Source of the DNA: a virus
IMG/VR virus record: IMGVR_UViG_3300045988_169084
DNA length: 37,968 nt
Strand: one strand, 5' to 3'
The number at the start of each line of letters is the position of its first letter. The first letter of the stretch is position 1. The translations under genes were made by a program, and so were the position numbers. Shown here piece by piece: positions 5,772 through 37,968 of this stretch. The notes below the pieces were generated by a model. It was not told the DNA's origin and made no database searches. It saw nothing but the letters and a program-made list of their open reading frames with translations.

Positions 5772-6155
5772 TTAAATCGCGCTTAAGAAGTAAGCATCGC
5801 CTATAACGTCATAATCGTTAAAGCCAACGCAGGTGCATACCGACGCAATATTGGCACTGCATAAACATGTCATTTCAATGCTCATGCCTTTCTTTGGAGT
5901 TATCTCATAATTACTTCCAACAAGTGTTGGGGTTTCATATTTCACAGTCCCATCACCTTGATCTACTGCGATTTGTAGGTACTGGACAATAGCCTGCGGG
6001 ATTTGTATTTTTGCCCCATCATTGTAAGAAGATCTCCTAGGATTAAGCTTAACTTTCATGTTAGAACTAGTAGGGAGGCCTTCAATTAGAAAGCTCTGAT
6101 TAGTGCTATTATTAGCAAAGCCTCTAGCTCTTACGTAATTTAAAAATGTTGCCAT
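5772..6155 (-). CDS. hypothetical protein (127 aa)
   Basis: ORF in the tail/lysis operon. No motif recognised. Confidence 0.4.
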   Translation of the reverse strand: MATFLNYVRARGFANNSTNQSFLIEGLPTSSNMKVKLNPRRSSYNDGAKIQIPQAIVQYLQIAVDQGDGTVKYETPTLVGSNYEITPKKGMSIEMTCLCSANIASVCTCVGFNDYDVIGDAYFLSAI

Positions 6156-6178
6156 GTCTTTGTCTTCTTCTGATGGGG

Positions 6179-7255
6179 TTACTGAGGGTTTACAGCCACG
6201 CTTCCTATGAACACTTTTGCCGTGTCAGTTGTAACGTAGATCGTACGTGAGTCTTTAGTTGCAAGCCCGTCGTATTGCGCTTGGGTTAAGGAAATGTTTA
6301 ACTTAGCGTACGCCGCATCGCACATCGCCTTATTCATCAAGTCCGTATCTGCTGGGGTCGCTTTTGTCGTGCGGGTAGCTCCAGCAAGGAAATTAGCGGT
6401 GCCGTTGAAAGTAGAAGGCGCGCTAATTTCTACGGAGACTAAGAATCGGAGAACAGAATCTGGTCCCCCTCCTACAGTTGCAGTCGCATCATCGTTAGCC
6501 ATGACGCCTACTGAATACGAGCCTGTCCCAAACTGTAATATATGTCCGGGAGAAATTATAAGAGAGGACGCACAAGTCACGTCTTCTTGGAATTGGCTAG
6601 TGACGGCAACGTCTAAATGTGTGGAGTTGCCTCCCTCAATTACGTAAGCGCCATTAGCTCCTTCTCCATGAAGCTTTAATGCGTTATCACCTGAACCAAT
6701 CACTAGGGGCACTTCATTGCCCATCGTAATCCCACCAGTAAAGGTCTTAGTCCCAGCTATGCTCTGATTGCCGATAAGTTTTACTGTGCTGTTTAGCGCA
6801 GTGTTGACCATCTCGGAGTTCATTACATCAGTAAGCGCAGGACTAGCTACTGTCTTCCGCTGGAGCGTACTCTGGAAAACCCATGCACCCGTAATTGTCT
6901 GCGAGGCAGACGGGTCAAAAGAATCACCGCCTCCCCCGGACGACGCACCGAGCGAGGCAACCTTAAAATCCAACGGAGTTAATACATACTGTGTATTTAA
7001 ATCTACATTTACAGTTGTATATGAGGAGATCGCTATGAAAATATATTGCCCTGCTTTACTAGCATTAAGCAATGTAATTCCATCTGGCGTATATTCCGGG
7101 GCGTCATGTCCTGCAACAGTTAGACTCCCAGTCGTTAAAGTCAGGCAGTACGATTTGCCAGCCATTGTGCGGAACGTTTGAGAAGTCTCATCTCCAGCAG
7201 TAGCAGGTGGTTCAACACCACCATTGCCCCCCCACCAATTCAATATTAGGGTCAA
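6179..7255 (-). CDS. tail fiber protein; the annotated start is TTG, and the likely native start is the ATG at 7292 in the -1 frame, joined through a G7 homopolymer
   Basis: Gly/Thr/Ser-rich with fiber-like motifs ('GNQSIAGTKTFTGGITMG', C-terminal 'TPADTDLMNKAMCDAAYAKL'). Position corresponds to T7 gene 17. There is no in-frame ATG upstream. Confidence 0.55.
   Translation of the reverse strand: MTLILNWWGGNGGVEPPATAGDETSQTFRTMAGKSYCLTLTTGSLTVAGHDAPEYTPDGITLLNASKAGQYIFIAISSYTTVNVDLNTQYVLTPLDFKVASLGASSGGGGDSFDPSASQTITGAWVFQSTLQRKTVASPALTDVMNSEMVNTALNSTVKLIGNQSIAGTKTFTGGITMGNEVPLVIGSGDNALKLHGEGANGAYVIEGGNSTHLDVAVTSQFQEDVTCASSLIISPGHILQFGTGSYSVGVMANDDATATVGGGPDSVLRFLVSVEISAPSTFNGTANFLAGATRTTKATPADTDLMNKAMCDAAYAKLNISLTQAQYDGLATKDSRTIYVTTDTAKVFIGSVAVNPQ
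7227..7233. repeat. C7 (plus) / G7 (minus) homopolymer at the 5' end of the tail-fiber gene
   Basis: Counted directly in the sequence. Removing one G fuses the ATG-initiated 26-codon leader ORF (7292..7212, MATKKTLTTTSGLDPNIELVGG...) in frame to the tail-fiber ORF. Confidence 0.8.
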
Positions 7256-20455: not shown

Positions 20456-21448
20456 TTAATAAACCATTTGAGTTCCGGTCACATCAACCTTGAGGACGCC
20501 CTTGTCTTCAATGCGGGTGCAACCCATAGCGAGTTCCGTGTAGGTCTGCCACACGTACTGCTTGTCGCGGCGCTCATCAATGCGTACGAACAGTTCTTCC
20601 AGTACGCCAAAGGCCACGGAGTTCATGTTAAACGCAATACAGGTGCGAACGTTTGCCGTGGAAGTGCCATCCGTCGGATCAGTAGGCGTTCCCAGCGGAC
20701 GAGAGCCGAACGGAAGCATTCCCGGAGACATGGCAACGAACCTAATGCCGAGGTAATCAAAGATGTTACCAGACACCAGCGGGCGGTCCACGTTGTACAA
20801 GATGCTTGCAACCTTTTCCTGAGAAAGCAAGTCCTTAAGCTCTTCATGAGAGATGAGCATGATGATTTCCGGGCCGCCCAAGTCCTGACGGTCCACGTCC
20901 TGACCAAGCACGTTCCGGGAACCAAAGATGTTGCGAACTTGAAGAAGCTTCTCAAGCGTCAAGCCGGAAGCGGTGTACGTCCCGGAAGGATTGTACCCAA
21001 CAGGAATCGTATTCAAAGTTTCGTTGAAAGGAACGGCAACGTCCCCATTCTCCCCAGTCCATGCAGTGCCGATCAAGCCGTTAACTGCGATGTGGTCACG
21101 ACGACGTGCCATTTCCATGCGTTCAGCCTGAACGATGCGAGGAATCGGAGATTCAATCGTACCCGCCTGCATCATTTCAATGCGGCTGATTTCATGCGTG
21201 GTCTTGAACGGCGTGGTCTTCAACCAGCGAACGTTGAAGTTAGCCTGCTGAGGGTTGGTATCGCCGTACAGGTCGGTAATCTCCTGAGAGTTCACCGGAT
21301 CAATGATCTGGAACCTGCGCTGGCGCGAAGCAAGCGGATACACACGCAGATAACGTTCAGTTCGTGAAGTCATCTGCTGGACACCCGCATAGATTGAAGG
21401 CGTGTATTCATTTACCGCCAAATCATAAAAGTTTCCGTAATTAGCCAT
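20456..21448 (-). CDS. major capsid protein (330 aa)
   Basis: Position after the scaffold gene, size close to T7 gp10A, and preceded by a long regulatory intergenic region. Confidence 0.55.
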   Translation of the reverse strand: MANYGNFYDLAVNEYTPSIYAGVQQMTSRTERYLRVYPLASRQRRFQIIDPVNSQEITDLYGDTNPQQANFNVRWLKTTPFKTTHEISRIEMMQAGTIESPIPRIVQAERMEMARRRDHIAVNGLIGTAWTGENGDVAVPFNETLNTIPVGYNPSGTYTASGLTLEKLLQVRNIFGSRNVLGQDVDRQDLGGPEIIMLISHEELKDLLSQEKVASILYNVDRPLVSGNIFDYLGIRFVAMSPGMLPFGSRPLGTPTDPTDGTSTANVRTCIAFNMNSVAFGVLEELFVRIDERRDKQYVWQTYTELAMGCTRIEDKGVLKVDVTGTQMVY

Positions 21449-23073: not shown

Positions 23074-24693
23074 TCATCGCATGTTCCCTATAGCGCTCCC
23101 AATGTTCTTCTGGATTTCAGAAGCTTCAAGAGCATTAGCCATCTGATTGGCCCCCTGTTGCGCCGCTTCTCTTTCTTTAATAAGACGGTCAACCTTCGCT
23201 TTATCCTTGAGTATCTTGGTCGGCATCCCAATAGATTTAATCCCTGACCTCATGATAAAATCAGTATCAAAGCTAATCATCACATCAGGATCAATCTGAG
23301 CCAAAGGAATCGCAATCGTCTGCATGAACTCGGAGAATAGCGTCGGCTGGTGACGGTCCAAAAGCATTTGGAAAGGAGTCGTAAACTTGATGCTAAAATC
23401 ATCCAGCGCAGGAACAAGCTTCTCATCTCGAAGAAGCTCATAGCAACGCATCACTACAGGCTGTAGGAACTCTTCCGTCAACCTAGTGTAGGCAGGGGAA
23501 GCAATCCTCGCAGAATACGCTTCGATCATCTGCGCCACCGTCGCCTTCATGTATTGAGGGTCTTTGACCTGCAACAACGGCGCAAACAAATCCATGTCGC
23601 ATGTCTTCTGAATGTTGTTCTCAAGCCTCTGCACCTGCCATTGCATCTCATTAGCCTGCATCATGTTCTGGAACAAGGGCGTCGGCTTGGCCTGAACGTT
23701 CATCGGGTTGAAGGTTGTCACCCCGCCAAACCCCCAGTCAATGTTCCCATCAAATCCTTCCGGCACCAGCATCGGCGGGAATATCTTCTGCATGGCCGAT
23801 TCGCTCAACGCCTTAACGGAGTTGGTCAATTCGGTCTGGTCCCCTAATGCCCTCAAACCAGCACCAACTCCATAAGGAGAGTTGGCAATATCAAAATAGT
23901 TTGAGACGCTCACAGGGCTTGTCCAAAAATACTGCGTCGCCAGAACATCTCCTGACTGGTCAAACACGCTACGCATCACCCACGGCCTGCCATTAGCCTC
24001 TTTAATCAGCTTCTCGTCTCCCGTCCTCTCCACCTTCTCCAGCAAATGGAACACAAGATAGTTGTCAGGATTTACACTGCTCGCCTGATATTTCTCCTTC
24101 ACCATGTCAGGCAGTACATTCTCCGGGAACGTCGCGACAATGTCCTGTATCCTCAACCACTCATCCCAGCAAAACGTATGGACATTCCCAAACTTGTCCC
24201 TGTCCACCATGAAATCCCCTACAGGAATATGCGCAAATTTCAGCATCCCTCGCACCTTGTCCCATTCGGACCAGAAGGCCGCCTGACCGTAAGCCGCACG
24301 ATCAAAGTAAAAAAGCTCGGAAGCCGTGTGGAAGTTGCTGTTGCGCATAAACCACGCAACCTGCCTCCCTGTCTCATAATAAATGTTCTCAATCGTGCTA
24401 TCAATCTGGCTCTGATCGTCGATCTTGGCCAATGGCTCAAAGCTAAACCATCCCTGACTCTTGGGCGTTATAAGCTCATGCTGGCCAGCCGCATTTACCC
24501 TCAAAGCCCTTTCAAGCGTCTGGTCCAAATAGCCAAGGTCCGTCCCAGTAGATTGATAAACCGCACCGTTAATGTTGAACTTCTTCTCAGGATCAACGTA
24601 TTGCGCGATCCTCTGCCAGTTGCTCACGTACCGCTGGCGGAAAGCATACAAATCCGCATGCTTCTGCTTGGCATCTTGTTTGTTGGTAACCAT
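23074..24693 (-). CDS. portal protein (539 aa)
   Basis: Size and position (terminase, then portal, then scaffold, then capsid). Confidence 0.55.
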   Translation of the reverse strand: MVTNKQDAKQKHADLYAFRQRYVSNWQRIAQYVDPEKKFNINGAVYQSTGTDLGYLDQTLERALRVNAAGQHELITPKSQGWFSFEPLAKIDDQSQIDSTIENIYYETGRQVAWFMRNSNFHTASELFYFDRAAYGQAAFWSEWDKVRGMLKFAHIPVGDFMVDRDKFGNVHTFCWDEWLRIQDIVATFPENVLPDMVKEKYQASSVNPDNYLVFHLLEKVERTGDEKLIKEANGRPWVMRSVFDQSGDVLATQYFWTSPVSVSNYFDIANSPYGVGAGLRALGDQTELTNSVKALSESAMQKIFPPMLVPEGFDGNIDWGFGGVTTFNPMNVQAKPTPLFQNMMQANEMQWQVQRLENNIQKTCDMDLFAPLLQVKDPQYMKATVAQMIEAYSARIASPAYTRLTEEFLQPVVMRCYELLRDEKLVPALDDFSIKFTTPFQMLLDRHQPTLFSEFMQTIAIPLAQIDPDVMISFDTDFIMRSGIKSIGMPTKILKDKAKVDRLIKEREAAQQGANQMANALEASEIQKNIGSAIGNMR

Positions 24694-24694
24694 C

Positions 24695-24979
24695 TTATTG
24701 ACCTAATGCGCTTTTGCCACTTACCCCGCTACCTGCCCCCAAGGCGTTCTTGCTCGCAACAAAGGTTCCTCCAAAGGAACTACGGCGCCTGTTCTCACGT
24801 ATCTTGTTCTCCGTGCCAGACGTATCGACTGTTACCTCATTCACTGGCTTCTCAGGAGCAGGAGCATCCATCCCCTCCTTGTTCTGCTTCAAGCCTAATA
24901 CGCCTCCAACGATATTAGTAACACCTTTGAACACGCCGCTAATAGCGTTGCCTATCTCTTTAAACGGATTGCCGCCCAT
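24695..24979 (-). CDS. hypothetical Gly-rich small protein (94 aa)
   Basis: ORF between the terminase and portal genes. Contains 'GNAISGVFKGVTNIVGGVLGL'. Confidence 0.4.
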   Translation of the reverse strand: MGGNPFKEIGNAISGVFKGVTNIVGGVLGLKQNKEGMDAPAPEKPVNEVTVDTSGTENKIRENRRRSSFGGTFVASKNALGAGSGVSGKSALGQ

Positions 24980-25394
24980 GATTTTTTCCCTTTCCTAATA
25001 ATTTAATTAGCAATTCAACTTCTTTTCTCCCGTACAGATACACATTCCCCGCACGAAAGCCAATAAAATATTTCATCCTCTCCTCTTTTATCATCCATCT
25101 TAACAACACTCTAAAATCTCCAACCCCTAAATAAAAGAAGAACCCATTCGCATCATGACGGCTACATGATAACGAAGGAACGCACGCCTGCTTCACCCTA
25201 GACCAGCATTCCTCCACATCAGCCCACCCCTCTTCCATCCGAAAGAAATGCCCCATCACAAGGCATCTATCATCCCATCGCCGATATAAATAACGATGCT
25301 CCTCCCAAGACGCATCAAAATCCGCGCCTAAAGCTTTCAGGACCGCGCGCCCCTCCTCTCCTAGACATGATGCCTTCATAGTTGTTCCTATCAA
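24960..25394 (-). CDS. hypothetical Trp/Arg/Gly-rich protein (144 aa), encoded by a C-depleted sense strand
   Basis: The annotated start overlaps the terminase 3' end by 80 bp, so the true start is probably an internal Met. Composition is biased. Confidence 0.35.
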   Translation of the reverse strand: MIGTTMKASCLGEEGRAVLKALGADFDASWEEHRYLYRRWDDRCLVMGHFFRMEEGWADVEECWSRVKQACVPSLSCSRHDANGFFFYLGVGDFRVLLRWMIKEERMKYFIGFRAGNVYLYGRKEVELLIKLLGKGKNHGRQSV

Positions 25395-26934
25395 TATTTA
25401 AATTGCTAAAGTTCCGGCCAAAGCTCTTCTTTACATGCGTCTCTCCTCCTCCACTTACGTTCCCAAGCAAACCAGCCATCCGAGCCTCAGCTATGTATCT
25501 CAACGAATCACTCCAATGCGACGAACTATCATGCACGATCTCGTTCTTATAGGCCCCATTCTCTCCAAGCGCGGGCTTCATCCTGTAGCTTAACCAGTAC
25601 GGATAAGCCTTCTCCGTCCCACCTATATCAAATCTCAATAAAGGGAACATCCCTAGCAAGTAATTGATACTTATCCATTTATCTCTTATTCTAGGCAAGC
25701 ATACTATCCCCGGCAACCCAGCCTGTTGCCACATGTACGCCTGACTTAAACCCGTGTCTGTCGTGTACCCAGCATCATGCGGAAATATATTCCTCATCAA
25801 GGTGGGAAATCTACTCAACAACCGAGCCGTCCTCTGCGCCGGACCCTCACTGCTATATTGGCCGCAATCACTATCTACTATCCAGATCAACCCCTCCTTC
25901 AACTGGAACACCGTCGAAACCGTATTCAACGGATTCCCCAAATCCCACGTCGCATAACACGGCAATGTCGGATCATATGGCGCATGCAAAAAATGACCAT
26001 CCCTCATCGATGCCTCAAGCACCTCCTCCAATATCGCACCCTCCATCGGCACCTCAAACGCCTCATCCAGCGTCGAAGGGTATTCCTCGTTCATCGATAA
26101 GCCATGTTGCCTCTTCGCCTTCTGCCACCAAACCTTCTGCCTGTCTTCCAAGTCGATCCCATATTTCGCCTTCAACGTCGTAAAGTAACTCTTCGTACTC
26201 TCCGTCAACGGCTCATCATCATCACTAACATTGCTCTCATCTTCCCACCACGGCAAAAATACAACGTTAAAGTCCTTCTCCCCCCTATGCCCCTCTTCTA
26301 TCGATAACGCATTCATCACGTTCTCATAGAATATCCCCTTCTTCCCCCCTCTTACTGTCGTCTCAACAAAAATAAATCCATCCTTCGCCGCAGGAAACGT
26401 CGCATTCACTATCTCCGCCGCCCTCTTCGGCTCCGTCGCACTTATCGTTCCCAACTCCGATATGTGCGCAAACCCCAAACCACTGCCCCTAAAGTATTTA
26501 CCACCAACTATACGGCTCGACTTCCTACCAACCATCTCCACCGTAATCATCTTGTTGTTAAATTCCATCTTAAACAACCAAGGCAATTTCCTCCTCAAAC
26601 TCTCCAACGCAACCCTCACTATCTCCCTCAACTTCTCCTCAGCATCAGGTTGCGTCCTGTCAACCAACGCCAATAACCACCCCTCATTAAACGCCGCCAT
26701 GTCCGCCATCATCACACCAATGCACGTACTGCACCCCTGACGACGCGACTTCGGCACCAAAAATCTCTTCTTCCCCCTCAAATAACACTCCTCATGCAAC
26801 CTACGCTGGAATTCCCTAGGCTCATATCTAATCACTCGACCATCCGTCAACTTGATCTCATACAAGTTGCTCAGCCTCCACATAGGGTCTTTCAACCTCT
26901 CCAATAACAATCTCTTCTCTTCCGAACTTAACAT
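25315..26934 (-). CDS. terL: terminase large subunit (539 aa)
   Basis: N-terminal P-loop-like 'LVPKSRRQGCST', acidic nuclease-domain motifs, and position directly upstream of the portal gene. Confidence 0.7.
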   Translation of the reverse strand: MLSSEEKRLLLERLKDPMWRLSNLYEIKLTDGRVIRYEPREFQRRLHEECYLRGKKRFLVPKSRRQGCSTCIGVMMADMAAFNEGWLLALVDRTQPDAEEKLREIVRVALESLRRKLPWLFKMEFNNKMITVEMVGRKSSRIVGGKYFRGSGLGFAHISELGTISATEPKRAAEIVNATFPAAKDGFIFVETTVRGGKKGIFYENVMNALSIEEGHRGEKDFNVVFLPWWEDESNVSDDDEPLTESTKSYFTTLKAKYGIDLEDRQKVWWQKAKRQHGLSMNEEYPSTLDEAFEVPMEGAILEEVLEASMRDGHFLHAPYDPTLPCYATWDLGNPLNTVSTVFQLKEGLIWIVDSDCGQYSSEGPAQRTARLLSRFPTLMRNIFPHDAGYTTDTGLSQAYMWQQAGLPGIVCLPRIRDKWISINYLLGMFPLLRFDIGGTEKAYPYWLSYRMKPALGENGAYKNEIVHDSSSHWSDSLRYIAEARMAGLLGNVSGGGETHVKKSFGRNFSNLNIDRNNYEGIMSRRGGARGPESFRRGF

Positions 26935-26953
26935 CTCAACCCCTAATCCTTTA

Positions 26954-27451
26954 CTATCTAACTATCTCTCTCATCTCAAACTCAACCGCCTGCCAGTCAA
27001 CATTAACGTGCGGACCAATCGCCTCTTTGCTCATAAATTTCCACGCAAACAACACCAAATCTGTACTATCCCTACCTCCATACTTCTTATACAACCACCT
27101 AGCCTTCCCCTTAATCCGGTACTTCGTCCTGCTCCGCAATACATAAAACTTACACGTCTCCACTCCATCAACCACATCATCCCCAGCAGAAACCCCAGCA
27201 GGCCTAATCCCATTCAGGTTCTCAACTCCCCTCAGCTTAGAACCCTCATAAACCAATTTATATTTCTTACTCAAATACCTCTTCTTCTCTTCCAATTTCC
27301 CGTCCCTCTCGTATATGTCATACGCCCTCCTAACATTCAAACTACATCTCCCGTACTTCTTCCACCCCATCAGCAAGTAATACAACTCCTGCTCAAATTT
27401 CCTAACTCCCTTCCCCTCTACCTCCAACCGCGCCTCATTACTTATCCCCAT
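26954..27451 (-). CDS. hypothetical Lys/Gly-rich protein (165 aa); terminase small subunit candidate by position only
   Basis: A stop-free 165-codon frame in a cytosine-depleted (A/G/T-rich) strand, where stops should be frequent. Confidence 0.4.
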   Translation of the reverse strand: MGISNEARLEVEGKGVRKFEQELYYLLMGWKKYGRCSLNVRRAYDIYERDGKLEEKKRYLSKKYKLVYEGSKLRGVENLNGIRPAGVSAGDDVVDGVETCKFYVLRSRTKYRIKGKARWLYKKYGGRDSTDLVLFAWKFMSKEAIGPHVNVDWQAVEFEMREIVR

Positions 27452-27950
27452 AATTCCCCCCTTTCAACAATTCACTAAGCTCACTCCCCATCTCCTCTTC
27501 ACTACCCCCTCCATTCCCAAGCCACCCCTTCATCCTTATAAACATGCTCAACGCCTGCAACTGGTCCTTACCACTCACTCCTTCCCCCCTTCCCATCTTA
27601 CTCAACAACCGCTCCACCTCTCCCCTACTCAACACCCCAACTTCTCCATCATCCCCTAAATCCATATTCAGCCCATCCTTCAACTCCCTCTTCAACATCT
27701 CTAACAACTTCTCCTCATTCCTCCTCATTTCATCCTCAAAATATTCATCCCTCTCCCCTAACAAATCACGACTAATCTCTCCATAGCTCTTCCTTCCCAA
27801 CAACACCAACAACATCCCTCTCAACTCCACCATCCCTACCTTCAACCCATAACCAAGCCTCTCTAACTCCTTCTCCCTCTCTTCACTCTCTTCACTCTCC
27901 AACAACCAGACAATATGCCTCTCAAGCTCTTCCGATAATTCTTCTCTCAT
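27438..27950 (-). CDS. hypothetical highly acidic protein (170 aa) encoded by an essentially cytosine-free sense strand
   Basis: 170 stop-free codons where chance predicts about 9% stops per codon. The protein has 0 Pro, 0 Thr, 1 Ala, 1 His and 2 Gln. First gene of the leftward operon. Confidence 0.4.
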   Translation of the reverse strand: MREELSEELERHIVWLLESEESEEREKELERLGYGLKVGMVELRGMLLVLLGRKSYGEISRDLLGERDEYFEDEMRRNEEKLLEMLKRELKDGLNMDLGDDGEVGVLSRGEVERLLSKMGRGEGVSGKDQLQALSMFIRMKGWLGNGGGSEEEMGSELSELLKGGNYGDK

Positions 27951-28086
27951 CTCAAAAACATATATAAATCATCCTCTCATCATTGTCTATGCTTTTTTCC
28001 CATAAAGCCCCAACACAACAAAACTACAAATCCTCTCATATTCTCTACATATACTATACTCCTTCTCTTTTCTCAGATTTTTCTTA

Positions 28087-28428
28087 CTCGAGGGACCCTT
28101 CTTCGTGCGCTTGACGCCGCCGCCGCTTTTCTCCCGCCGGCCCCCTCGAGACCCCCTCCAGTGGTCCCCCTAGGGGTGGGGTTATCGTCTCGGCTACGCT
28201 AAGAGGGGTGAGCTGGAGAGGTCGAGCGTCAGGCGTTGCGGTGCGTGGTGCGTGGTGTTGCGTGGTCTATCATGTTGTTGGCGTCACCAAGATGATGATG
28301 ATGATTTGAAAAAAATGTGACGAGTTGACAAAAAAAGCTTGCAATGGTGAGAGAAAATTGACACAAAGAGTGCATCAAGTGAGGGGCACGACGCCTCGAA
28401 CGACGACAACCGACAACCAAAAACAAAC
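28087..28428. promoter_or_regulatory. GC-rich divergent control region (candidate early/late promoters, origin and/or pac site)
   Basis: Lies between the first leftward gene and the first rightward gene. Contains an inverted repeat with ctcgag ends (28087-28092 / 28145-28150), the perfect palindrome cccctagggg (28167-28176), a GGTGCGT tandem (28242-28257), (GAT)5 (28293-28307), and two TTGACA hexamers (28327-28332 and 28360-28365). Confidence 0.5.
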
Positions 28429-28755
28429 ATGAAAGTGACCATTAACAAACTAGCATCAAAGCGCCTCTTAGAGGCATTTGCCAAAGTCGGAGCTTGCAGG
28501 ACCGAGGAGCAAGCCGAGGCTCGCATGTCAAAGCTCTTAGGCGTGCCAGTGCATGTGATCTACTACCGCTCGGAAGAGATCACGGAGATAGACATGAGGG
28601 CGGCGACTGGAGAAGGGAGCCTGTTCCCGGCTCGCGTGAGCGTCGAGGGAAGCGTGCCGTTGTACAAACTGGCGGCGCTTGTGAAGGATGCCTTGCCTAC
28701 CTTAGCCGTTGGAGTGGTGACCTACAACAACCACATGCAACCCTCTATCAACTAA
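28429..28755 (+). CDS. hypothetical early protein (108 aa)
   Basis: First ORF of the rightward arm, with a CA-rich leader. Confidence 0.5.
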   Translation: MKVTINKLASKRLLEAFAKVGACRTEEQAEARMSKLLGVPVHVIYYRSEEITEIDMRAATGEGSLFPARVSVEGSVPLYKLAALVKDALPTLAVGVVTYNNHMQPSIN

Positions 28756-28791
28756 TTATTAACAATCAACGAAACAAGGAGAAAAACGAAA

Positions 28792-29058
28792 ATGAACAAG
28801 AAATATATCTATCGCTGGACGGCCAAAGCGGCCGACTGGTCAACGTACAAAATGTGCTACGAACTGGCAAAGACGGAACGAGGCGCTTTGGTTGCGGCTC
28901 ATCGTTGGTGCGACGACAACCTGTTGCACGGCATGGGAGCGGATCACATTGCTATAGTTGAGTGCAAGATTGACGACGGCGACATATCTGGTCCGTGGCA
29001 AGAGGTGAGGGCGCAAAGGCGTCGTCCTTACGGTGGACGGTGGATTGAAATCCTCTAA
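28792..29058 (+). CDS. hypothetical early protein (88 aa)
   Basis: AGGAG SD. ORF with normal composition. Confidence 0.5.
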   Translation: MNKKYIYRWTAKAADWSTYKMCYELAKTERGALVAAHRWCDDNLLHGMGADHIAIVECKIDDGDISGPWQEVRAQRRRPYGGRWIEIL

Positions 29059-29072
29059 CTTACGAAGGAGCT

Positions 29073-29264
29073 ATGAAAACCGCCGCTATCATCGCGCTTG
29101 GAGTTGTAAGCCTAGTAGGCTTTGCCGCTATCATCCGTAGCGTGTGGCTAGACTACACGTACAGACACGCACCGCTGGGCAGTGTGATAGTCATTGCCGT
29201 GTCATTGACAGTCATGATCTGCATCACGCTGATGACACTAATCACGCTGGTTATCAACAATTAA
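29073..29264 (+). CDS. small two-TM membrane protein (63 aa)
   Basis: Two hydrophobic helices. The stop codon lies inside the TTAACAATCA motif. Confidence 0.5.
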   Translation: MKTAAIIALGVVSLVGFAAIIRSVWLDYTYRHAPLGSVIVIAVSLTVMICITLMTLITLVINN

Positions 29265-29302
29265 CAATCAAAAACATTAAACATTTAAAGGAGAAAAGAG
29301 AA

Positions 29303-29644
29303 ATGATGATAAAACTCGTTAACCCCGATTGCGATGCCGCGACGACATGCGGCATCTATGAGTTGCAAGACGGGGAAATAATATTGTACATTGAGTATGA
29401 GACAATTTATAGTATCTCGTTTGTAGGCCTATCTGAGCCTATGAGCGTTGAGGCCGCCATAACCGCGATTAAAAACAACGCACTTGCCGAAATAAAAACA
29501 AGCGGAGAAGAGGGCGAAATCCACAACCTCCCGATGAAACGCTCTTGTGGGGCGCACCGAAATCGAAGAAGACGGCCTGCAAATCTGCTTGTATTTTCCG
29601 AATATGAGCGAGAAGACCCGCGAGAAGTTCGTGGAAGCATTTAA
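29303..29644 (+). CDS. hypothetical early protein (113 aa; start at 29303 MMIKLVNPD..., preceded by AAGGAG)
   Basis: The ORF track lists 29144..29644, but that start overlaps the upstream membrane gene. The SD-associated ATG is at 29303. Confidence 0.45.
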   Translation: MMIKLVNPDCDAATTCGIYELQDGEIILYIEYETIYSISFVGLSEPMSVEAAITAIKNNALAEIKTSGEEGEIHNLPMKRSCGAHRNRRRRPANLLVFSEYEREDPREVRGSI

Positions 29645-29663
29645 CGATTAACAATATACGTAG

Positions 29664-30044
29664 ATGAATTTGGAAATAGATAGATGCGACTTTGAGCGAA
29701 TCGTCAACGCCTTTCACTTGATAGACGCCAAAATCAGTGACCGTGAATTCGTCCTAGACACGATATGGAGCATGGTCGAAGGTTCAGACCTAACATTTAA
29801 CAATTTGGAAGCATGTGTCACCTTGTTAGACGTTTACGATGACGTAGAGGAGTTTGCCTATGACAGACTAAGCGACGAAGAAACTAACGAATTGTTAGAA
29901 GACGTCGGGTCTAATACGCTCCTTAAGATAGCACTGGATAGACTCGTCGATAGGGGAACTATCATGTCTTACAATCTACGAAACGGTGACGCAACTATTA
30001 TATGTGACCTAAACGGTGACGCAACTATTATATGTGACCTCTAA
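29664..30044 (+). CDS. hypothetical acidic protein (126 aa) ending in a duplicated decapeptide NGDATIICDL
   Basis: ORF. The 3' end carries a perfect 30-bp tandem duplication. Confidence 0.5.
   Translation: MNLEIDRCDFERIVNAFHLIDAKISDREFVLDTIWSMVEGSDLTFNNLEACVTLLDVYDDVEEFAYDRLSDEETNELLEDVGSNTLLKIALDRLVDRGTIMSYNLRNGDATIICDLNGDATIICDL
29981..30040 (+). repeat. perfect 2 x 30-bp in-frame tandem duplication (aaacggtgacgcaactattatatgtgacct)
   Basis: Read directly; both copies are identical. Confidence 0.9.
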
Positions 30045-30083
30045 CCTCTAACAATCAACAACAAACAACTATAACAAAACGTT

Positions 30084-30728
30084 ATGAATCAATCAACCAA
30101 ATCAAAAGGAGAAAAAACCTACGACTACAAGGCAGTCATCATCAGGTCATACAACCCACTACAAACCGAAATCATCGAAGGAGAATCGAAGTCAAAAAAC
30201 ATTAAGTGGGCCGCAATCGTCGCCGCTAGAGCAATCGCCACGCATAACGACGTGGACGCCTTAATCCTCCTCTACGACGCGAAAACCGGAAAGCACGTAC
30301 ACTCATCACGCCTCAGAAAGGCATCATGCGCCTCATATCGTGAGCGGATCACTAACCAAGCAAAGTATGCCCGCAAATCGAGAACGCGCGAAATAGAGCG
30401 GCTTTATTGCTATCTCCCTCGCCCCAAAATCATCACCAAAGCAAGCGGCCACAGAAGGCAAACATACTACAAGATTATCATCAGAGAAATCTACATTGCC
30501 AAGTCCGGGAGACTGGCAACTAGGAGTATCCCACGCGAGAACCTACCGGAAGCACTAAGAACCGAAGGCAGGCTCGTCCGAGAATCAAATCTCCAGTCAG
30601 AACTCGACAGGATCATGGCAAACCTCTATTCCCGTAGCTCACTGCCTGACCTCGAACAAGCACAAAAGATTGCAAGCGAATGGCCAAATTTTGAACATAT
30701 CATCAACTTCATCAAAAGATACTGTTAG
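30084..30728 (+). CDS. hypothetical basic protein (214 aa), possibly nucleic-acid binding
   Basis: Arg/Lys-rich ORF. No specific motif recognised. Confidence 0.5.
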   Translation: MNQSTKSKGEKTYDYKAVIIRSYNPLQTEIIEGESKSKNIKWAAIVAARAIATHNDVDALILLYDAKTGKHVHSSRLRKASCASYRERITNQAKYARKSRTREIERLYCYLPRPKIITKASGHRRQTYYKIIIREIYIAKSGRLATRSIPRENLPEALRTEGRLVRESNLQSELDRIMANLYSRSSLPDLEQAQKIASEWPNFEHIINFIKRYC

Positions 30729-30767: not shown

Positions 30768-30810
30768 AGAGGGCCGCCCGTTCATAACTGGTGGCCCTCT
30801 CCTCTTTTCC
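30768..30810 (+). terminator. rho-independent terminator candidate (stem agagggcc/ggccctct, T-rich tail)
   Basis: Hairpin 30768-30800 followed by cctcttttcc, immediately downstream of the 214-aa gene. Confidence 0.45.
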
Positions 30811-31457
30811 ACGTCATAATAAATTTTCTGCTTGCAATGCCACCGATTTTGCTTGACACTGATTGGCGTTCGGATGAACACGCAGTCTTACTTGAGGTGG
30901 GAGGGGTCTGGAGTCCCCCGAACTGGTTCCGGTCGAGGCTTGAGAGCTAATGAGAGGCAGTCTAGGGGAAATGAGAAGAAGAGTAAAGAAGAAAAAAAAT
31001 CAGTATTATCTTTCCGGAGTTTGGATTTGCTAGAAGAGGTTGGCGAAATTAAATGGGAATAGGGAATAGCGAGAGGAATTAGGAATAATACCGATTTTTG
31101 GTGGAGGGTGTAGAGAGTAAGAGAGGCGTGGAAGTAGAGGAGAGGGAGAGGACGAAGAATTGGAGGAGAGTAGTGGTAAGAGAGGTTGTGAGAGGGCAGA
31201 AAAGGGAGGAGTATGGTTTGGAGAGGAATCTTGGGAATGACCTGCATGCCAGTAGGTTATTTTGGGATTTTGGAGTGTGAAAGATGAGGGCTGTTGATTG
31301 GATTTGATGAATTGTTAGTTGGCTTGGAGGAGTTGAGGCGGCGCCCTTAGTTAAGGGTTTGATAAATGGGATGTTTGGTTGGTTTGATGAGGGGAAATTG
31401 GATGAAACGGCGCCATGTTTGATTTTGGAGTTGACGGCTTAGGGAAAAACGTTATAG
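30811..31457 (+). other. ~650-bp non-coding, cytosine-depleted, purine-rich block with short repeats (GGAATA x3; GTTTGAT x4-5; GA-rich tract 31090-31240)
   Basis: No ORF above 76 codons on the plus strand despite the position between plus-strand genes. Composition is near C-free, and repeats are visible by eye. Confidence 0.5.
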
Positions 31458-31949
31458 TTGAAAGAAAACAAAGGAGAACTAGAAATGAAGAAATATGAAC
31501 TGAGCGCATTTGTAAACTTTGATAACTGTTTTGAATCCCAATTCCCGGTTGGGGGGGAAGTTGGGGCGTTAAATAGGGTTTATGGTCATTTAAAGGGGAT
31601 GTGCGCTAGTGGGGATGATGTTCTTTTGGGTGTTAGCTTGGTTGAGGGAGGGCATAGGAGGAGTATGGGTGCGATATGTTTCAAATGGGGGTGTGGGGAT
31701 TGTTTTGATTTGTCGAGGGGTATTAGTCGGTGTGGTGTTTTGGTGGAAGATATGAGCTACTGCTTTTTAACGTATGTTGCTAATGGGACTAACCCGTTGA
31801 TTTATGGGATGCAGTATGTATGGGTTTTTTATAGTGACCGGATTGAGAAGGTGAATAGGATTGTAGCGGATTATTCATTTTCTGATTACCGCTTGCAAGG
31901 CTTATGGTTTTTTGATGAAGAGCATTGTTTTAAAGATGCTTGTAATTAG
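31458..31949 (+). CDS. hypothetical Cys/Gly-rich protein (163 aa) encoded by a C-depleted sense strand
   Basis: AAGGAG SD. The ORF is stop-free in an A/G/T-rich context. Confidence 0.45.
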   Translation: MKENKGELEMKKYELSAFVNFDNCFESQFPVGGEVGALNRVYGHLKGMCASGDDVLLGVSLVEGGHRRSMGAICFKWGCGDCFDLSRGISRCGVLVEDMSYCFLTYVANGTNPLIYGMQYVWVFYSDRIEKVNRIVADYSFSDYRLQGLWFFDEEHCFKDACN

Positions 31950-31981
31950 AAAAAAGAAAAGAAAGAAAGGAAACAATAACA

Positions 31982-32944
31982 ATGGATAAAAAAAGAACGA
32001 TGCAAAGAAGAAATAATAATAATAAAGTAACTTATAGGGTTTTTGTCCTTATAAAATATGAAGATAAGTTGGAAGACTTTTATAAAGAAGAGGCGCTTGC
32101 TAGTTATCCTGATGTTCGTGCATTAGAGGATATGATTAACCGGGTAAAAGAACATGCTATCGATGCTAAGAAAAGAGGTCTTGGCCTAGAGTTCCACATT
32201 AGCGAGGAATATGGTCAGGCGTTTAGAGATATTAAGTTTTCTAAGAACTATTCTGCTGATGAATTGTCGTTGTTGGACCTTGAAAAAGAGTTTGATATTG
32301 ATTCGTATGTTTTTATGCATGATATTATTCAAGCTAGTGGCCGGAGTCGTGGGATTTTTTATCCTGCATATTCAGATTCGCTTAAGGCCGCTGAGGAATA
32401 TATTGAGACATCAGGAATGGACAGCAAGCTTTTCATCACCATATCCTATAATTGCGACGCCCTAAAAAGAATGGAGTTTATCGTTGGTTCTTTTAAATAC
32501 ACTTTCAAAGATAGTAATGTAGTTGATTTGAGCAAGTCCGAAGAAAGCCGTGAGAAGGCTCCAGAAGGCCCTAGCGACGCTTTGGAGGACTTTGGTACCA
32601 AGGAAGACTTGGAAACGCTTCTGGAGGTGATGAGAGGCCTTCGAGACGATGTTAACGGAGAGCTGAATGATTCTTGCGTAGCTGGGGTCCGTTTGGTGAG
32701 TGTGAGAGCAGTGGATGCTCCGGGAGCGGCCAACTATTTTCGGCGGGCTAGGAAGGACATTGATGAGAGGACAGGATTGGTGAGATTGTCGGAGATAGAG
32801 ACTAATGAGCTTTTCGATAAGGAAATAGGAGTTGTTGTTCCCTATCTGTCTTTGAGGGCTTATCTAAAGACCGGAGAAAAGGGGCTGTTCGCGCGTCAAA
32901 TGGAAAAGGCCCAGCGCGAAGTGATGAAGGACTTCGAGAAATAA
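31982..32944 (+). CDS. hypothetical protein (320 aa); replication-associated by position only
   Basis: Large ORF upstream of the recombinase, within the replication-like module. Confidence 0.45.
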   Translation: MDKKRTMQRRNNNNKVTYRVFVLIKYEDKLEDFYKEEALASYPDVRALEDMINRVKEHAIDAKKRGLGLEFHISEEYGQAFRDIKFSKNYSADELSLLDLEKEFDIDSYVFMHDIIQASGRSRGIFYPAYSDSLKAAEEYIETSGMDSKLFITISYNCDALKRMEFIVGSFKYTFKDSNVVDLSKSEESREKAPEGPSDALEDFGTKEDLETLLEVMRGLRDDVNGELNDSCVAGVRLVSVRAVDAPGAANYFRRARKDIDERTGLVRLSEIETNELFDKEIGVVVPYLSLRAYLKTGEKGLFARQMEKAQREVMKDFEK

Positions 32945-33089: not shown

Positions 33090-33707
33090 ATGATTTACGG
33101 GTACATTAGGGTAAGTAGTGACAAGCAAACAGTGGAGAACCAACGCTTTGAAATAAATAATTTCTGCGAGCGAGAGAAAATTAAAATTGATGGTTGGATT
33201 GAGGAAACCATCAGTGGTACTAAGGCATACAATAAACGCCAGTTGGGAAAACTGCTCAGACAAGTACAGAAAGATGACCTTATCATTTGTGCCGAGCTTT
33301 CACGTCTTGGGCGAAATCTCTTTATGATTATGGAGATACTGAATATATGCATGACCAGAGAGTGCCGTGTGTGGACAATCAAAGATAATTATCGTCTTGG
33401 TGATGATATTCAAAGCAAAGTGTTGGCTTTTGCCTTTGGCCTATCTGCGGAGATAGAACGCAATCTTATTAGCCAGCGAACTAAAGAAGCCTTGGCAAGA
33501 AAGAAAGCCGAGGGTGTTGTTCTTGGCCGACCGAAAGGGAAAAAGAATGCTCCTAATAAATATAAGCTTTCTGGCAAAGAAACACTAATAAAGGAGTTGA
33601 TAGCAATTGGTGTATCAAAGCGCAAAATTGCGAAAACATGTAAGGTCGACCGCAATACGCTTGCACGCTTTATCAAAGAAAATTTGGAGCGCTTAATTAC
33701 CGCATAA
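33090..33707 (+). CDS. small serine recombinase (resolvase/invertase family, 205 aa)
   Basis: N-terminal 'MIYGYIRVSSDKQ' with the catalytic Ser in the canonical context, 'LSRLGR', and a C-terminal HTH-like region. Too short for a large serine integrase. Confidence 0.8.
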   Translation: MIYGYIRVSSDKQTVENQRFEINNFCEREKIKIDGWIEETISGTKAYNKRQLGKLLRQVQKDDLIICAELSRLGRNLFMIMEILNICMTRECRVWTIKDNYRLGDDIQSKVLAFAFGLSAEIERNLISQRTKEALARKKAEGVVLGRPKGKKNAPNKYKLSGKETLIKELIAIGVSKRKIAKTCKVDRNTLARFIKENLERLITA

Positions 33708-33770
33708 TAAATCCCCCCCGGCAGTTTGTGGTTTTTCTGCCGGGGGGATTTATTATGCGGTAATTAAGCG
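33690..33770. terminator. bidirectional terminator: ~34-bp near-perfect inverted repeat around a 13-nt loop (inner GC stem ccccccggcag/ctgccgggggg), shared by two convergent genes
   Basis: Read directly. The arms extend into both coding regions, so both proteins end in ...RLITA. Confidence 0.6.
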
Positions 33771-34388
33771 GTCCATTGATTCTGCAATGGATTTTATTAG
33801 GAGTGATGTTTCGGGGAATGTGGTTGAAATTGCTATGGTTCTTTGCCCGTTGTCATTTCTTTCTGATAATAGATGTGAAAGATTTGAAATGTTGATATCG
33901 TGCAAATTAACGTTTTGTAGGTTATCAATTACAAGGGCTTTTGCTTTGAATGCTCTTCTCAGAATTGGTGATTTATTCCGGCTGTGAAAGTCAGTTGCTT
34001 CTTTCAACAGGTCAAAGGCTTTAATATAGAAAATGGAATCCCCTTTCTTGTATCTTTGTGCAAGCCATGCGCATGCTGATAGAGTCTTGGGCTTGTTAGG
34101 CCCGCAAATGAGAATGGACTCTTCTTTCATCTCTTTCCTAATGCGTGAATAGAGATCGGGCATGGTTTTGACGGTCATTTCTTTGAGCAGGTTAAAATGC
34201 TTGAGAGGAATCTTGGCAAGCTGGAGATCAGCTAAAAAGATTTCTCGTTCCTTCTCCTGCTGGAATTTCCTTTCTTGCTCGATGTATTCCGGGCTAAGGT
34301 GATCTACAACGGGAATTCCTAGGGGTATGTTATTAAAATCAAACCCTAGTTCTTCGAGGATGTCGGAAGCTTTCTTTGGTTCGGACAT
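33753..34388 (-). CDS. DnaC/IstB-like AAA+ helicase-loader homologue with a degenerate Walker A (GPNKPKT)
   Basis: 'ILICGPNKPKTLSACAWLAQ' (P-loop position), 'ALVIDNL' (Walker B-like), 'IAISTTF' (sensor-like), and C-terminal 'DRLI' as in DnaC 'DRLxH'. Confidence 0.45.
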   Translation of the reverse strand: MSEPKKASDILEELGFDFNNIPLGIPVVDHLSPEYIEQERKFQQEKEREIFLADLQLAKIPLKHFNLLKEMTVKTMPDLYSRIRKEMKEESILICGPNKPKTLSACAWLAQRYKKGDSIFYIKAFDLLKEATDFHSRNKSPILRRAFKAKALVIDNLQNVNLHDINISNLSHLLSERNDNGQRTIAISTTFPETSLLIKSIAESMDRLITA

Positions 34389-37117: not shown

Positions 37118-37957
37118 ATGGCTAAGAATAAACTTGTAGTTCCTTTTTTGAAATGGGTTGGAGGAAAAAGACAACTTATTCCAGAAATTAGAAAGATGTT
37201 ACCCAAAGGGGTAGCGAATCGTCCCTACTATGAGCCATTCATCGGAGGCGGAGCTTTATTTTTTGAACTCCAGCCAAAACAAGCAGTTATAAATGATTAT
37301 AACGAAGAGTTGATCAATGTTTATACGGTTATAAGGGACAACCACAATGAACTTATTGAGGATTTAAAGAAACATAAAAATACGTCAGAGTATTTTTATG
37401 AAATTCGCTCTATGGATAGGCAACCTCTTTTTAAAAATCTTACCACTATCGAGCGAGCATCACGAATTATATATCTCAATAAAACTTGCTATAATGGATT
37501 ATATCGGGTTAATAATGCCGGGGAATTTAATTCTCCATTTGGAAAATATAAAAATCCAAATATTGTCAATGAGCCTGTGATTAAGGAGGTAAGTAAATAT
37601 TTAAATTCTGGTCGGATTCAAATATCAAATGGTGATTATGAGGTAATTTTGAGAGATATACCAACAAACTCATTTGTGTATTTAGATCCTCCGTATCATC
37701 CTATTTCAGAGAGTTCTAATTTTACAGGATACGTGCAGGGTGGATGGAGTGAGAGGGATCAGCTTAGGCTAAGAGATGTTTGTAATAGATTAAATAGCAA
37801 TGGCATAAAATTTCTCCTATCAAATTCTGCATCTAATTTCATAAAAGAAATTTATGCGGAATACAATATTCATGTAGTACAGGCAAGTCGTGCTATAAAT
37901 TCAGATTCTTCTAAAAGAGGGCAAGTTGATGAATTTTTAATTAGCAATTATGAGTAA
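37118..37957 (+). CDS. dam: DNA adenine methyltransferase (Dam-like, N6-adenine MTase, DPPY motif)
   Basis: N-terminal 'FLKWVGGKRQLIPEI' (AdoMet-binding motif I region) and 'FVYLDPPYHP' (motif IV, DPPY). About 33% GC, orphan (no adjacent restriction enzyme). Confidence 0.85.
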   Translation: MAKNKLVVPFLKWVGGKRQLIPEIRKMLPKGVANRPYYEPFIGGGALFFELQPKQAVINDYNEELINVYTVIRDNHNELIEDLKKHKNTSEYFYEIRSMDRQPLFKNLTTIERASRIIYLNKTCYNGLYRVNNAGEFNSPFGKYKNPNIVNEPVIKEVSKYLNSGRIQISNGDYEVILRDIPTNSFVYLDPPYHPISESSNFTGYVQGGWSERDQLRLRDVCNRLNSNGIKFLLSNSASNFIKEIYAEYNIHVVQASRAINSDSSKRGQVDEFLISNYE

Positions 37958-37968
37958 ATCCAAAAATG
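37850..37968. repeat. 119-bp copy of window positions 1..119 (wrap-around)
   Basis: Exact identity read directly. Confidence 0.9.

Follow-up and report, generated by a model that had tools for sequence, protein, structure and literature searches.

Between two plus-strand genes of this phage lies an interval, positions 30811–31457, in which cytosine is scarce on the plus strand, and the question it raises is what such a sequence is for, or whether it is for anything at all. A first-pass annotation, made from the sequence alone, had offered three candidates: an iteron-type replication origin, a long non-coding or decoy RNA, and a decayed remnant of cytosine-depleted genes. The window, by which we mean the whole 37,968-nt stretch analysed here (IMG/VR record IMGVR_UViG_3300045988_169084), is assembled as a complete circle: the 119 nt at its start recur at its end, which leaves a unit of ~37.85 kb. 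Its source is a podovirus-like phage with a circular map of roughly 37.8 kb.

The genes are arranged in two arms, which diverge at ~28.1–28.4 kb and converge at ~3.4 kb. The late arm, on the minus strand, contains a TerS-like ORF (27438–27950), TerL (25315–26934), a T7-type portal (23074–24693) and a capsid gene (20456–21448). When we asked whether the 27438–27950 product is a Psu-like anti-Rho protein, homologues were found in close relatives only; its conserved C-terminal motif has what we take to be a resemblance to small terminase. The plus-strand arm carries an exonuclease, a RecT-like protein, a RuvC-like resolvase and a Dam-type methylase, and encloses a small leftward DnaC-like operon, whose DnaC-like gene (33753–34388) is on the opposite strand to the block. 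Neither a DNA polymerase nor a primase of its own was detected in the phage, in which a DnaC-like loader, exonuclease, RecT-like and RuvC-like proteins were found, and there are no tRNA genes in the window. Several IMG/VR contigs break at 28.1–28.2 kb. Genome termini at this position were considered and rejected: the overlaps, of 99 and 119 nt, resemble assembler k-mer artefacts, and the window is circular.

A megablast search of INPHARED with 24.0–38.0 kb as query gave no match, and the nearest TerL proteins, from Ralstonia and Bcep22-like podoviruses, are only ~30% identical. A prophage search for the host, using genome contigs with TerL, was also without a match. The probable host is a member of the Bacteroidota, for example Prevotella, because an additional serine recombinase of the Mpi invertase family (33090–33707) is 73% identical to a Prevotella nigrescens gene, and because most genes have no Shine–Dalgarno sequence but A-rich upstream regions.

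The first-pass annotation described the block as cytosine-free and purine-rich, and both descriptions need adjustment. The 647 nt comprise 183 A, 65 C, 229 G and 170 T; cytosine is therefore strongly depleted but not absent, at 10.0% compared to 23.6% window-wide, and G stands at 35%. Depletion is deeper from 30940 onward (35 C in 518 nt, 6.8%) and deepest over 31040–31240 (8 C in 201 nt, 4%), and G reaches 35–42% across the block and its subregions. Of the eight longest stretches without C in the window, four (61, 43, 40 and 38 nt) are located here, and the residual C occurs in islands at 30908–30939, 31241–31250, 31339–31346 and 31408–31414. The purine-rich label fits 31040–31240, which is 77% purine, but not 31240–31430, which is G+T-rich (A21 C8 G36 T34, in per cent). 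The core of the finding is the C-poor, G-rich, non-coding tract on the plus strand from 30940 to 31430, with a composition of A30 C7 G37 T26.

The short ORFs reported earlier are present, at 30832–31062 (plus strand, 76 aa), 31098–31280 (plus strand, 60 aa) and 30888–31247 (minus strand, 119 aa). None of the three stays open in an alignment of the block from ten relatives at 87–97% identity, where 1-nt indels, a 10-nt insertion and a 103-nt deletion interrupt them. Moreover, TAA, TAG and TGA each occur in all three plus-strand frames, so that reassignment of any single stop codon is excluded and the block is non-coding, as the first-pass annotation had it. Its view of the minus-strand ORF as an artefact of composition is likewise borne out by the broken frame. 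We note for annotators that G- or C-depleted strands give long spurious ORFs; the 119-aa ORF at 30888–31247 is one example and the many ORFs antisense to the late operon are others.

The tract is bounded by recognisable elements, all on the plus strand. A terminator-like hairpin at 30768–30800, followed by CTCCTCTTTTCC, ends the unit of the central block; it has an MFE of −24 kcal/mol (z = −4.8, 200 shuffles) and is nearly invariant among 10 relatives. Beyond it, at 30830–30859, is a promoter/operator-like module (P_t) consisting of GCTTGCAATG-N13-TTGACAC, which has a sister copy at 28337–28364 at the head of the central block (genes 28429–30728). Each of the two motifs has two exact copies window-wide, paired alike at these two places, and both copies of the module are kept in relatives; distant relatives have GCTTGACA at their early heads. 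From this arrangement of motifs we infer that 30830–30859 acts as a promoter and sets a transcription start.

Next to the module is a conserved element of ~45 nt (30895–30940) that does contain C, made up of a G-run and TCTGGAGTCCCCCGAACTGGTYCCGGTCGAGGC. It is near-invariant in 10 relatives, which vary in the length of the G-run (GGGAGGGG, G8 or G9), and its core, GTCCCCCGA..TGGT.CC.G.CGAGG, is the only piece in common with the otherwise unalignable locus L005 (85% TerL identity). It is not a stable hairpin, since it folds worse than its shuffles (z = +2.1). Searches of viral contigs for a wider spread of this leader element matched four contigs only. Further in, an invariant 15-nt inverted repeat (30995–31009 and 31085–31099) surrounds 75 nt and encloses three copies of GGAATA; the fold of 30990–31104 is marginally better than shuffles (z = −1.5). 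An Mpi inverton was considered here and rejected, in that the inverted repeat flanks just 75 nt, the sequence ARACGTWCGT is absent from the region, all ten assemblies (10/10) share one orientation, and relatives with the same inverted repeat lack the invertase gene. The middle of the tract is GA-rich and variable in relatives.

Towards its downstream end the tract has four RTTTGAT cores and two GGCGCC palindromes (31340 and 31409) within 31302–31423, upstream of a second promoter-like sequence, P2. This lies at 31431–31458 and reads TTGACG-N16-TATAGT (10/12 matches in a promoter scan), followed by AAAGGAGA and the ATG at 31486. The P2 hexamers are kept in 10 of 10 relatives, the second being TATATT in L029, and are kept even in L020, where the upstream sequence differs; L005 has TTGACG-N17-TAAATT in this position. 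A search for TAnnTTTG, the promoter consensus of Bacteroides type, found nothing in the target block; the one well-placed match, at 28026, precedes the late operon on the minus strand. The first two genes of the unit, encoding proteins of 154 and 320 aa (plus strand, 31486–32944), gave no Pfam or PHROG match.

The repeats were the basis for proposing an iteron-type origin. Three copies of GGAATA do exist, at 31056, 31063 and 31082, slightly to the left of the 31061–31095 originally given. There are also four copies of the GTTTGAT/ATTTGAT repeat, at 31302, 31357, 31382 and 31417, but they are spaced by 55, 25 and 35 nt and not by ~28 and ~56 nt. Both motifs are above the expectation from dinucleotide shuffles (P ~0.0005–0.003, post hoc), and this excess is what speaks for an origin. 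However, the cores are just 6–7 nt long and irregularly spaced, and the longest pairs of direct repeats (23–28 nt) are only 71–74% identical in a three-letter composition. Their number and presence also vary among close relatives: a deletion in L020 removes 31279–31381, three of the four RTTTGAT copies are gone from this relative, and L030 has one more GGATTTGATG. Of the two GGCGCC palindromes, neither L020 nor L022 keeps the one at 31409, and the L020 deletion covers the one at 31340. The DnaA-box search suggested by the first-pass annotation found no match to TTATCCACA at ≤1 mismatch in 30811–31457, and there is no AT-rich unwinding element, the GC content being 37–45% throughout 31250–31499. 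The replication genes are >2 kb from the block and on the other strand, and no initiator gene adjoins it. Iteron origins such as lambda ori, P1 oriR and pSC101 are likewise intergenic with short direct repeats, but the block has no 17–22 bp phased iterons, AT-rich element, DnaA boxes or adjacent initiator, and its repeats are dispensable in relatives. An iteron-type origin here is therefore very improbable. TTTGAT, GGAATA and GGCGCC would most simply be dispensable protein-binding or promoter-proximal motifs.

The proposal that the C-depleted genes at 26.95–27.95 kb gave rise to the block, by decay or as a degenerate inverted duplication, fares no better, and we regard it as extremely unlikely. 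The two regions are alike in composition and have weak inverted matches (76–78% over 21–32 nt), but the best blastn score between them is 33.7 bits, against a maximum of 31.0 bits in 30 shuffled controls, and blastp gives no significant match (best E = 0.89). In addition, a non-coding tract of similar size is kept in lineages down to 65% TerL identity. What survives of the proposal is the link itself: the block and the genes at 27438–27950 share a compositional regime.

Two aspects of this regime had been overlooked in the first-pass annotation. One is that C-depletion runs on from the block into the downstream genes, to ~33.0 kb: the skew declines from +0.75 to +0.2 over the genes at 31486–32944 and has faded by ~33 kb, and four-fold sites in these genes are 12–15% C. 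The other is that the block mirrors the head of the late (terminase–portal–capsid) operon. This mirror domain (minus strand, 24500–28088) shows extreme depletion of C from its sense strand and is the most skewed DNA in the window, with a plus-strand GC skew of approximately −0.9 to −0.96 at 27.6–27.9 kb that weakens to about −0.3 near 24.7 kb. Within 27438–27950 the sense strand has 44% G and 3% C; second codon positions are depleted too, to 1% C in this gene, so that the choice of amino acids has changed as well. At four-fold sites the late head has 0–6% C and 50–68% G, compared to 21–28% C and 20–27% G in the distal late genes, with little change in A and T; in successive thirds of TerL, four-fold C is 2%, 3% and 12%. 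The purge of C from the late head thus fades across ~4–5 kb. The early-head domain begins at a unit boundary, and the unit just before it, which lies on the same strand and arm, is biased the other way (four-fold A38 C39 G13 T9); this argues for a property of the transcription unit rather than of the replichore.

The late-head pattern was seen in 19 of the 19 IMG/VR loci found with TerL (65–100% identity), and also in 6 Logan/ENA loci. In two loci at 50–52% TerL identity, L023 and L036, a skew of 0.3–0.7 extends over the whole 12–20 kb sampled. The purge was not seen in the 30% TerL relative, nor in Bacteroides phage B40-8, whose overall skew is 0.16. The C-purge of operon heads is a trait of one phage clade, covering 50–100% TerL identity. 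The early-head domain is present in the lineage of the window, and non-alignable purine-rich tracts are found in L005 (341 nt, 81% purine), L011, L012, L014 and L015. The late leaders of L010 and L015 are 83–85% purine and 3% C, and the early-head skew of L010 is weak, almost none. In the L023 lineage G is enriched together with T and in the 65% lineage together with A, so that low C and high G are all that the lineages share. Among the relatives, then, composition is conserved rather than sequence.

This pattern has something in common with Szybalski's rule, or purine loading, in that the sense strand is G-enriched (with purines in most lineages here) and the bias is oriented with transcription in both divergent operons. 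It differs in being far larger, with a local GC skew of 0.7–0.96 and four-fold C of 0–6%; in affecting the first few kb of operons and decaying from there, with long non-coding leaders; and in being a swap of G for C rather than a mild genome-wide bias. In the searchable literature we found no description of such extreme and localised sense-strand C-purging of phage operon heads, although this does not prove that none exists.

The substitutions in the tract bear on whether the composition is selected or simply the outcome of mutation. Where the target has C, the alignment column is most often variable (42%, compared to 24–29% for the other bases), and C has changed to A, G and T 6, 7 and 5 times respectively between the target and its relatives. 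Only 15 of 155 minor alleles are C, and transversions outnumber transitions. The swap leaves GC content constant, and T is not enriched. The spectrum looks like "anything but C", with G preferred, and not like cytosine deamination.

The sense RNA that such DNA would give has distinctive properties. Rut sites, at which Rho loads, lie in C>G-biased, weakly structured RNA, and the clefts of the primary site bind YC; termination by Rho is common in 5′ UTRs and horizontally acquired DNA, and Rho of Bacteroidota has insertions in its N-terminal domain (PMC12360218). In the target tract there are 2–5 YC per 100 nt on the sense strand and 25–29 on the antisense strand; across the skewed domains the ranges are 0.3–5 and 22–35, with a sense skew of +0.6 to +0.9. 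The sense RNA thus has the G>C bias and the scarcity of YC of a Rho-resistant, Rut-free transcript. It is also weakly structured: at equal GC, skewed sense RNA has an MFE of −23 kcal/mol per 150 nt, compared to −8 for the antisense and −38 in normal regions, and the tract as a whole folds no better than shuffles (z = +1.3). Rfam gave no match at the gathering score for the window and 4 related loci. A structured RNA, including antiterminators of the put or nut type, was rejected on the absence of an Rfam match and of any stable or covarying fold, the RNAalifold covariation term being unfavourable.

We propose that the block is the untranslated, promoter-proximal part of a rightward early/middle transcription unit. 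The leader would start past the terminator hairpin and the module at 30830–30859, run for ~500 nt, and end at P2 before the first gene. At both divergent heads, C of the sense strand has been exchanged, mainly for G, in non-coding DNA, at synonymous sites and in the choice of amino acids. The nascent RNA, being G>C-biased, nearly free of YC and weakly structured, would leave Rho unable to load, both on the long ribosome-free leader and on the first kilobases of the operon; any antisense RNA over the heads would be rich in C, devoid of G and without structure, and so an ideal substrate for Rho, strongly terminated. More speculatively, the gradient could mirror how much RNA is still naked, a length that shrinks while ribosomes close the gap to RNA polymerase. 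We favour this compositional shielding from Rho because the sense RNA is poor in YC and weakly structured, and because the untranslated leaders of the two heads, at 500–750 nt and in some lineages purged of all pyrimidines, would otherwise be an obvious Rho target. As judged from sequence, we put the probability that the block is a poorly structured leader invisible to Rho, with an antisense RNA ideally suited to Rho, at roughly 40%. The wider proposal, that a clade of gut phages uses bulk composition as a sequence-independent device for antitermination and insulation, which weakens as the lead ribosome catches up, is possible but on balance doubtful.

Several observations sit uneasily with shielding from Rho. 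YC is not depleted beyond what the C content predicts (z = +0.7), and there is therefore no Rho-specific signal beyond composition. G is positively enriched, for which simple avoidance of Rho has no need. Ribosomes should already shield translated regions, and the gradient across coding genes therefore needs an extra assumption, namely that the lead ribosome lags behind the polymerase in a host that initiates without Shine–Dalgarno sequences. The lineages differ in their use of A and T. P2 lies right after the tract, so the downstream genes may not need the leader. Finally, an explanation centred on replication would account for the divergent geometry just as well.

One such explanation is that the G-rich transcripts of both heads form RNA:DNA hybrids that open the duplex or prime the leading strand, so that replication starts between the heads, as in ColE1, T4 oriF/oriG and mitochondrial origins. 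The G-rich non-template strand is correctly oriented on both sides, the cumulative GC skew has its minimum at ~28.1 kb, and the apparent want of a polymerase and primase in the phage would suit priming by transcript. The hybrid is also favoured energetically: with the nearest-neighbour parameters of Sugimoto 1995 and SantaLucia 1998, RNA:DNA minus DNA:DNA comes to between −0.14 and −0.20 kcal/mol per step within the heads, compared to about −0.05 elsewhere. The block itself combines this (−0.14 kcal/mol per step) with a high G density of 37–42%. It does not, however, have clusters of at least three G on the non-template strand near the promoter: GGG occurs 15 times against 25.6 expected (z = −2.1) and GGGG twice against 9.3 (z = −2.0), the sole G8 run is at 30899–30906, and there is no G-quadruplex motif. 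In this it departs from the R-loop-prone regions of ColE1 RNA II, mitochondrial CSBII, immunoglobulin switch regions and GC-skewed CpG-island promoters, with which it shares a strong positive skew that begins past the promoter and decays, as well as a thermodynamically favoured hybrid. Nor does any origin approach the size of a domain that crosses 4–5 kb of essential genes; the skew of L023 and L036 covers more than 12–20 kb, and L010 has almost no early-head skew. We consider an R-loop zone unlikely. We give a similarly low weight to the possibility that the composition has no function and is the by-product of strand-asymmetric mutation, either associated with transcription or caused by single-strand exposure in replication, and strongest near the divergence point. 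The gradual fall of the skew with distance, the high variability of the residual C columns, and the four-fold sites of L023, whose sense strand is G+T-rich and A+C-poor like signatures of single-strand deamination, are all in its favour. It is weakened by the lack of T enrichment in the window, where four-fold G is up by 35–40 points and C down by 20 points, by the equal change of C to A, G and T with an excess of transversions, by the opposite bias of the neighbouring unit on the same strand and arm, and by the reshaping of amino-acid composition at 27438–27950. If the cause is nonetheless mutational, the clade records an unusually strong and localised strand-specific process.

Two further readings seem to us improbable. 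A strand almost free of C has no palindromic restriction sites that contain G or C, and few bipartite ones, and the composition could thus evade host defence at the DNA level, leaving the operon heads proof against restriction. Such evasion follows directly from the composition, the swap of G for C leaves GC content and hence duplex stability unchanged, and the phage has its own Dam-type methylase; but evasion does not predict that the C-poor strand should always be the sense strand, at both heads and in all lineages, and does not explain why, in a circularly permuted map, the purge should be limited to operon heads. The suggestion of a long non-coding or decoy RNA is right to the extent that a transcribed, untranslated leader is plausible. 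As a trans-acting RNA, transcribed from 30830–30859 and titrating a host RNA-binding protein by its GGA/GAG motifs, it would gain from the excess of GAG (z = +4.1) and of GGA/GGAG (z ~+2) over mononucleotide shuffles, and from the tract's position, with a promoter-like module before it and a second promoter after it. No terminator closes the tract, however, there is no Rfam family and no stable or covarying structure, and the sequence is not conserved between lineages. Bacteroidota are also not known to have CsrA.

If the leader does shield the operon from Rho, the outcome would be that of the known phage anti-Rho and antitermination devices, lambda N-nut and Q, HK022 put RNA and P4 Psu, and of Salmonella RARE: long operons escape Rho, by means of an element placed directly downstream of promoters. 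These devices are specific proteins or structured RNA motifs, and none was found here. The device proposed is instead bulk composition, in which Rut-type sequence is absent and the sequence is free to drift.

The tract is a natural C-less leader for testing the rules of Rho loading. Its signature, a local sense-strand GC skew above 0.7 at operon heads, could be used to locate transcription starts and their direction in uncultured phages. If the composition is adaptive, it would represent a new and easily recognised way for a phage to escape host termination without a dedicated antiterminator, and would point to Rho as a major obstacle that foreign operons meet in Bacteroidota, whose translation initiates without Shine–Dalgarno pairing.

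The two genes directly 5′ of the C-poor, G-rich non-coding leader (30811-31457, plus strand) have a composition opposite to that of the leader. Across 29664-30728 the sense strand is rich in A+C and poor in G, with A38 C39 G13 T9 at 4-fold degenerate codon sites, and its density of YC dinucleotides, which are tied to Rho loading, is the highest of the region at 12-15 per 100 nt. On these compositional grounds, the transcript of 29664-30728 is predicted to be the most Rut-like (Rho-binding) RNA of the region, lying directly before the terminator hairpin. The first of the ORFs here (29664-30044) also contains an exact tandem duplication of 30 nt (29981-30040), which doubles the C-terminal peptide NGDATIICDL.

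Close relatives differ in the G-run at the leader's start (30899-30906), which may be a slippage-prone tract: the window and the related phage loci L021 and L029 have GGGAGGGG, most others have G8, and L028 has G9. In L010 and L015, which are distant relatives, the corresponding early head contains runs of C8-C10.

C-purging is stronger at the head of the late operon (24500-28088, minus strand) than in the leader. By composition count, C makes up 3% and G 44% of the sense strand of the TerS-like ORF (27438-27950); runs of plus strand without G at this head extend to 98 nt. The depletion fades gradually across TerL (25315-26934) to the portal gene (23074-24693), and is kept in 25 related loci.

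In the relatives L023 and L036, whose TerL identity is 50-52%, a sense-strand GC skew of 0.3-0.7 runs throughout the sampled part of the genome (1900-21530 and 2200-14632, respectively); their 4-fold sites are 55-81% G, with A and C each at most 12%. The L023 locus is part of a 243-kb contig in the NCBI MAG GCA_964448375.1 and is possibly a prophage. In the minus strand of the relative L005 (TerL identity 85%), a 270-nt pyrimidine-rich tract (6560-6830; 24% purine) lies upstream of TTGACT promoter-like boxes and a 340-nt purine-rich tract (6100-6440; 81% purine) lies downstream of them, so that the arrangement is mirrored about the promoter.

Exactly at the point where the two arms diverge, 28090-28290 has a GC content of 66-70% and is rich in repeats; CCGCCGCCGC, palindromes of CTCGAG and, at 28233-28266, (GGTGCGT)n occur in it. 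The global minimum of the cumulative GC skew falls here, and breaks in three independent IMG/VR contigs lie at 28097-28199. The segment may represent an ori, pac or cos region.

A 34-nt inverted repeat (33685-33775; 97% complementary) is placed between the 3′ ends of an Mpi-family invertase gene and a DnaC-like gene, whose proteins both end in ...RLITA. Relatives L026-L031 lack the invertase gene. These features suggest a recent insertion, with the end of the neighbouring gene copied in inverted orientation.

Positions 1-119 and 37850-37968 are identical over 119 nt, and the window is therefore a circular assembly; a Dam methylase gene runs across the junction. Opposite the sense strand of the C-purged domains there are numerous long ORFs, within 25754-27786 on the plus strand, where one at 26852-27478 has 208 aa, and at 30888-31247 on the minus strand. 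These are artefacts of G depletion, and could be wrongly annotated as genes.
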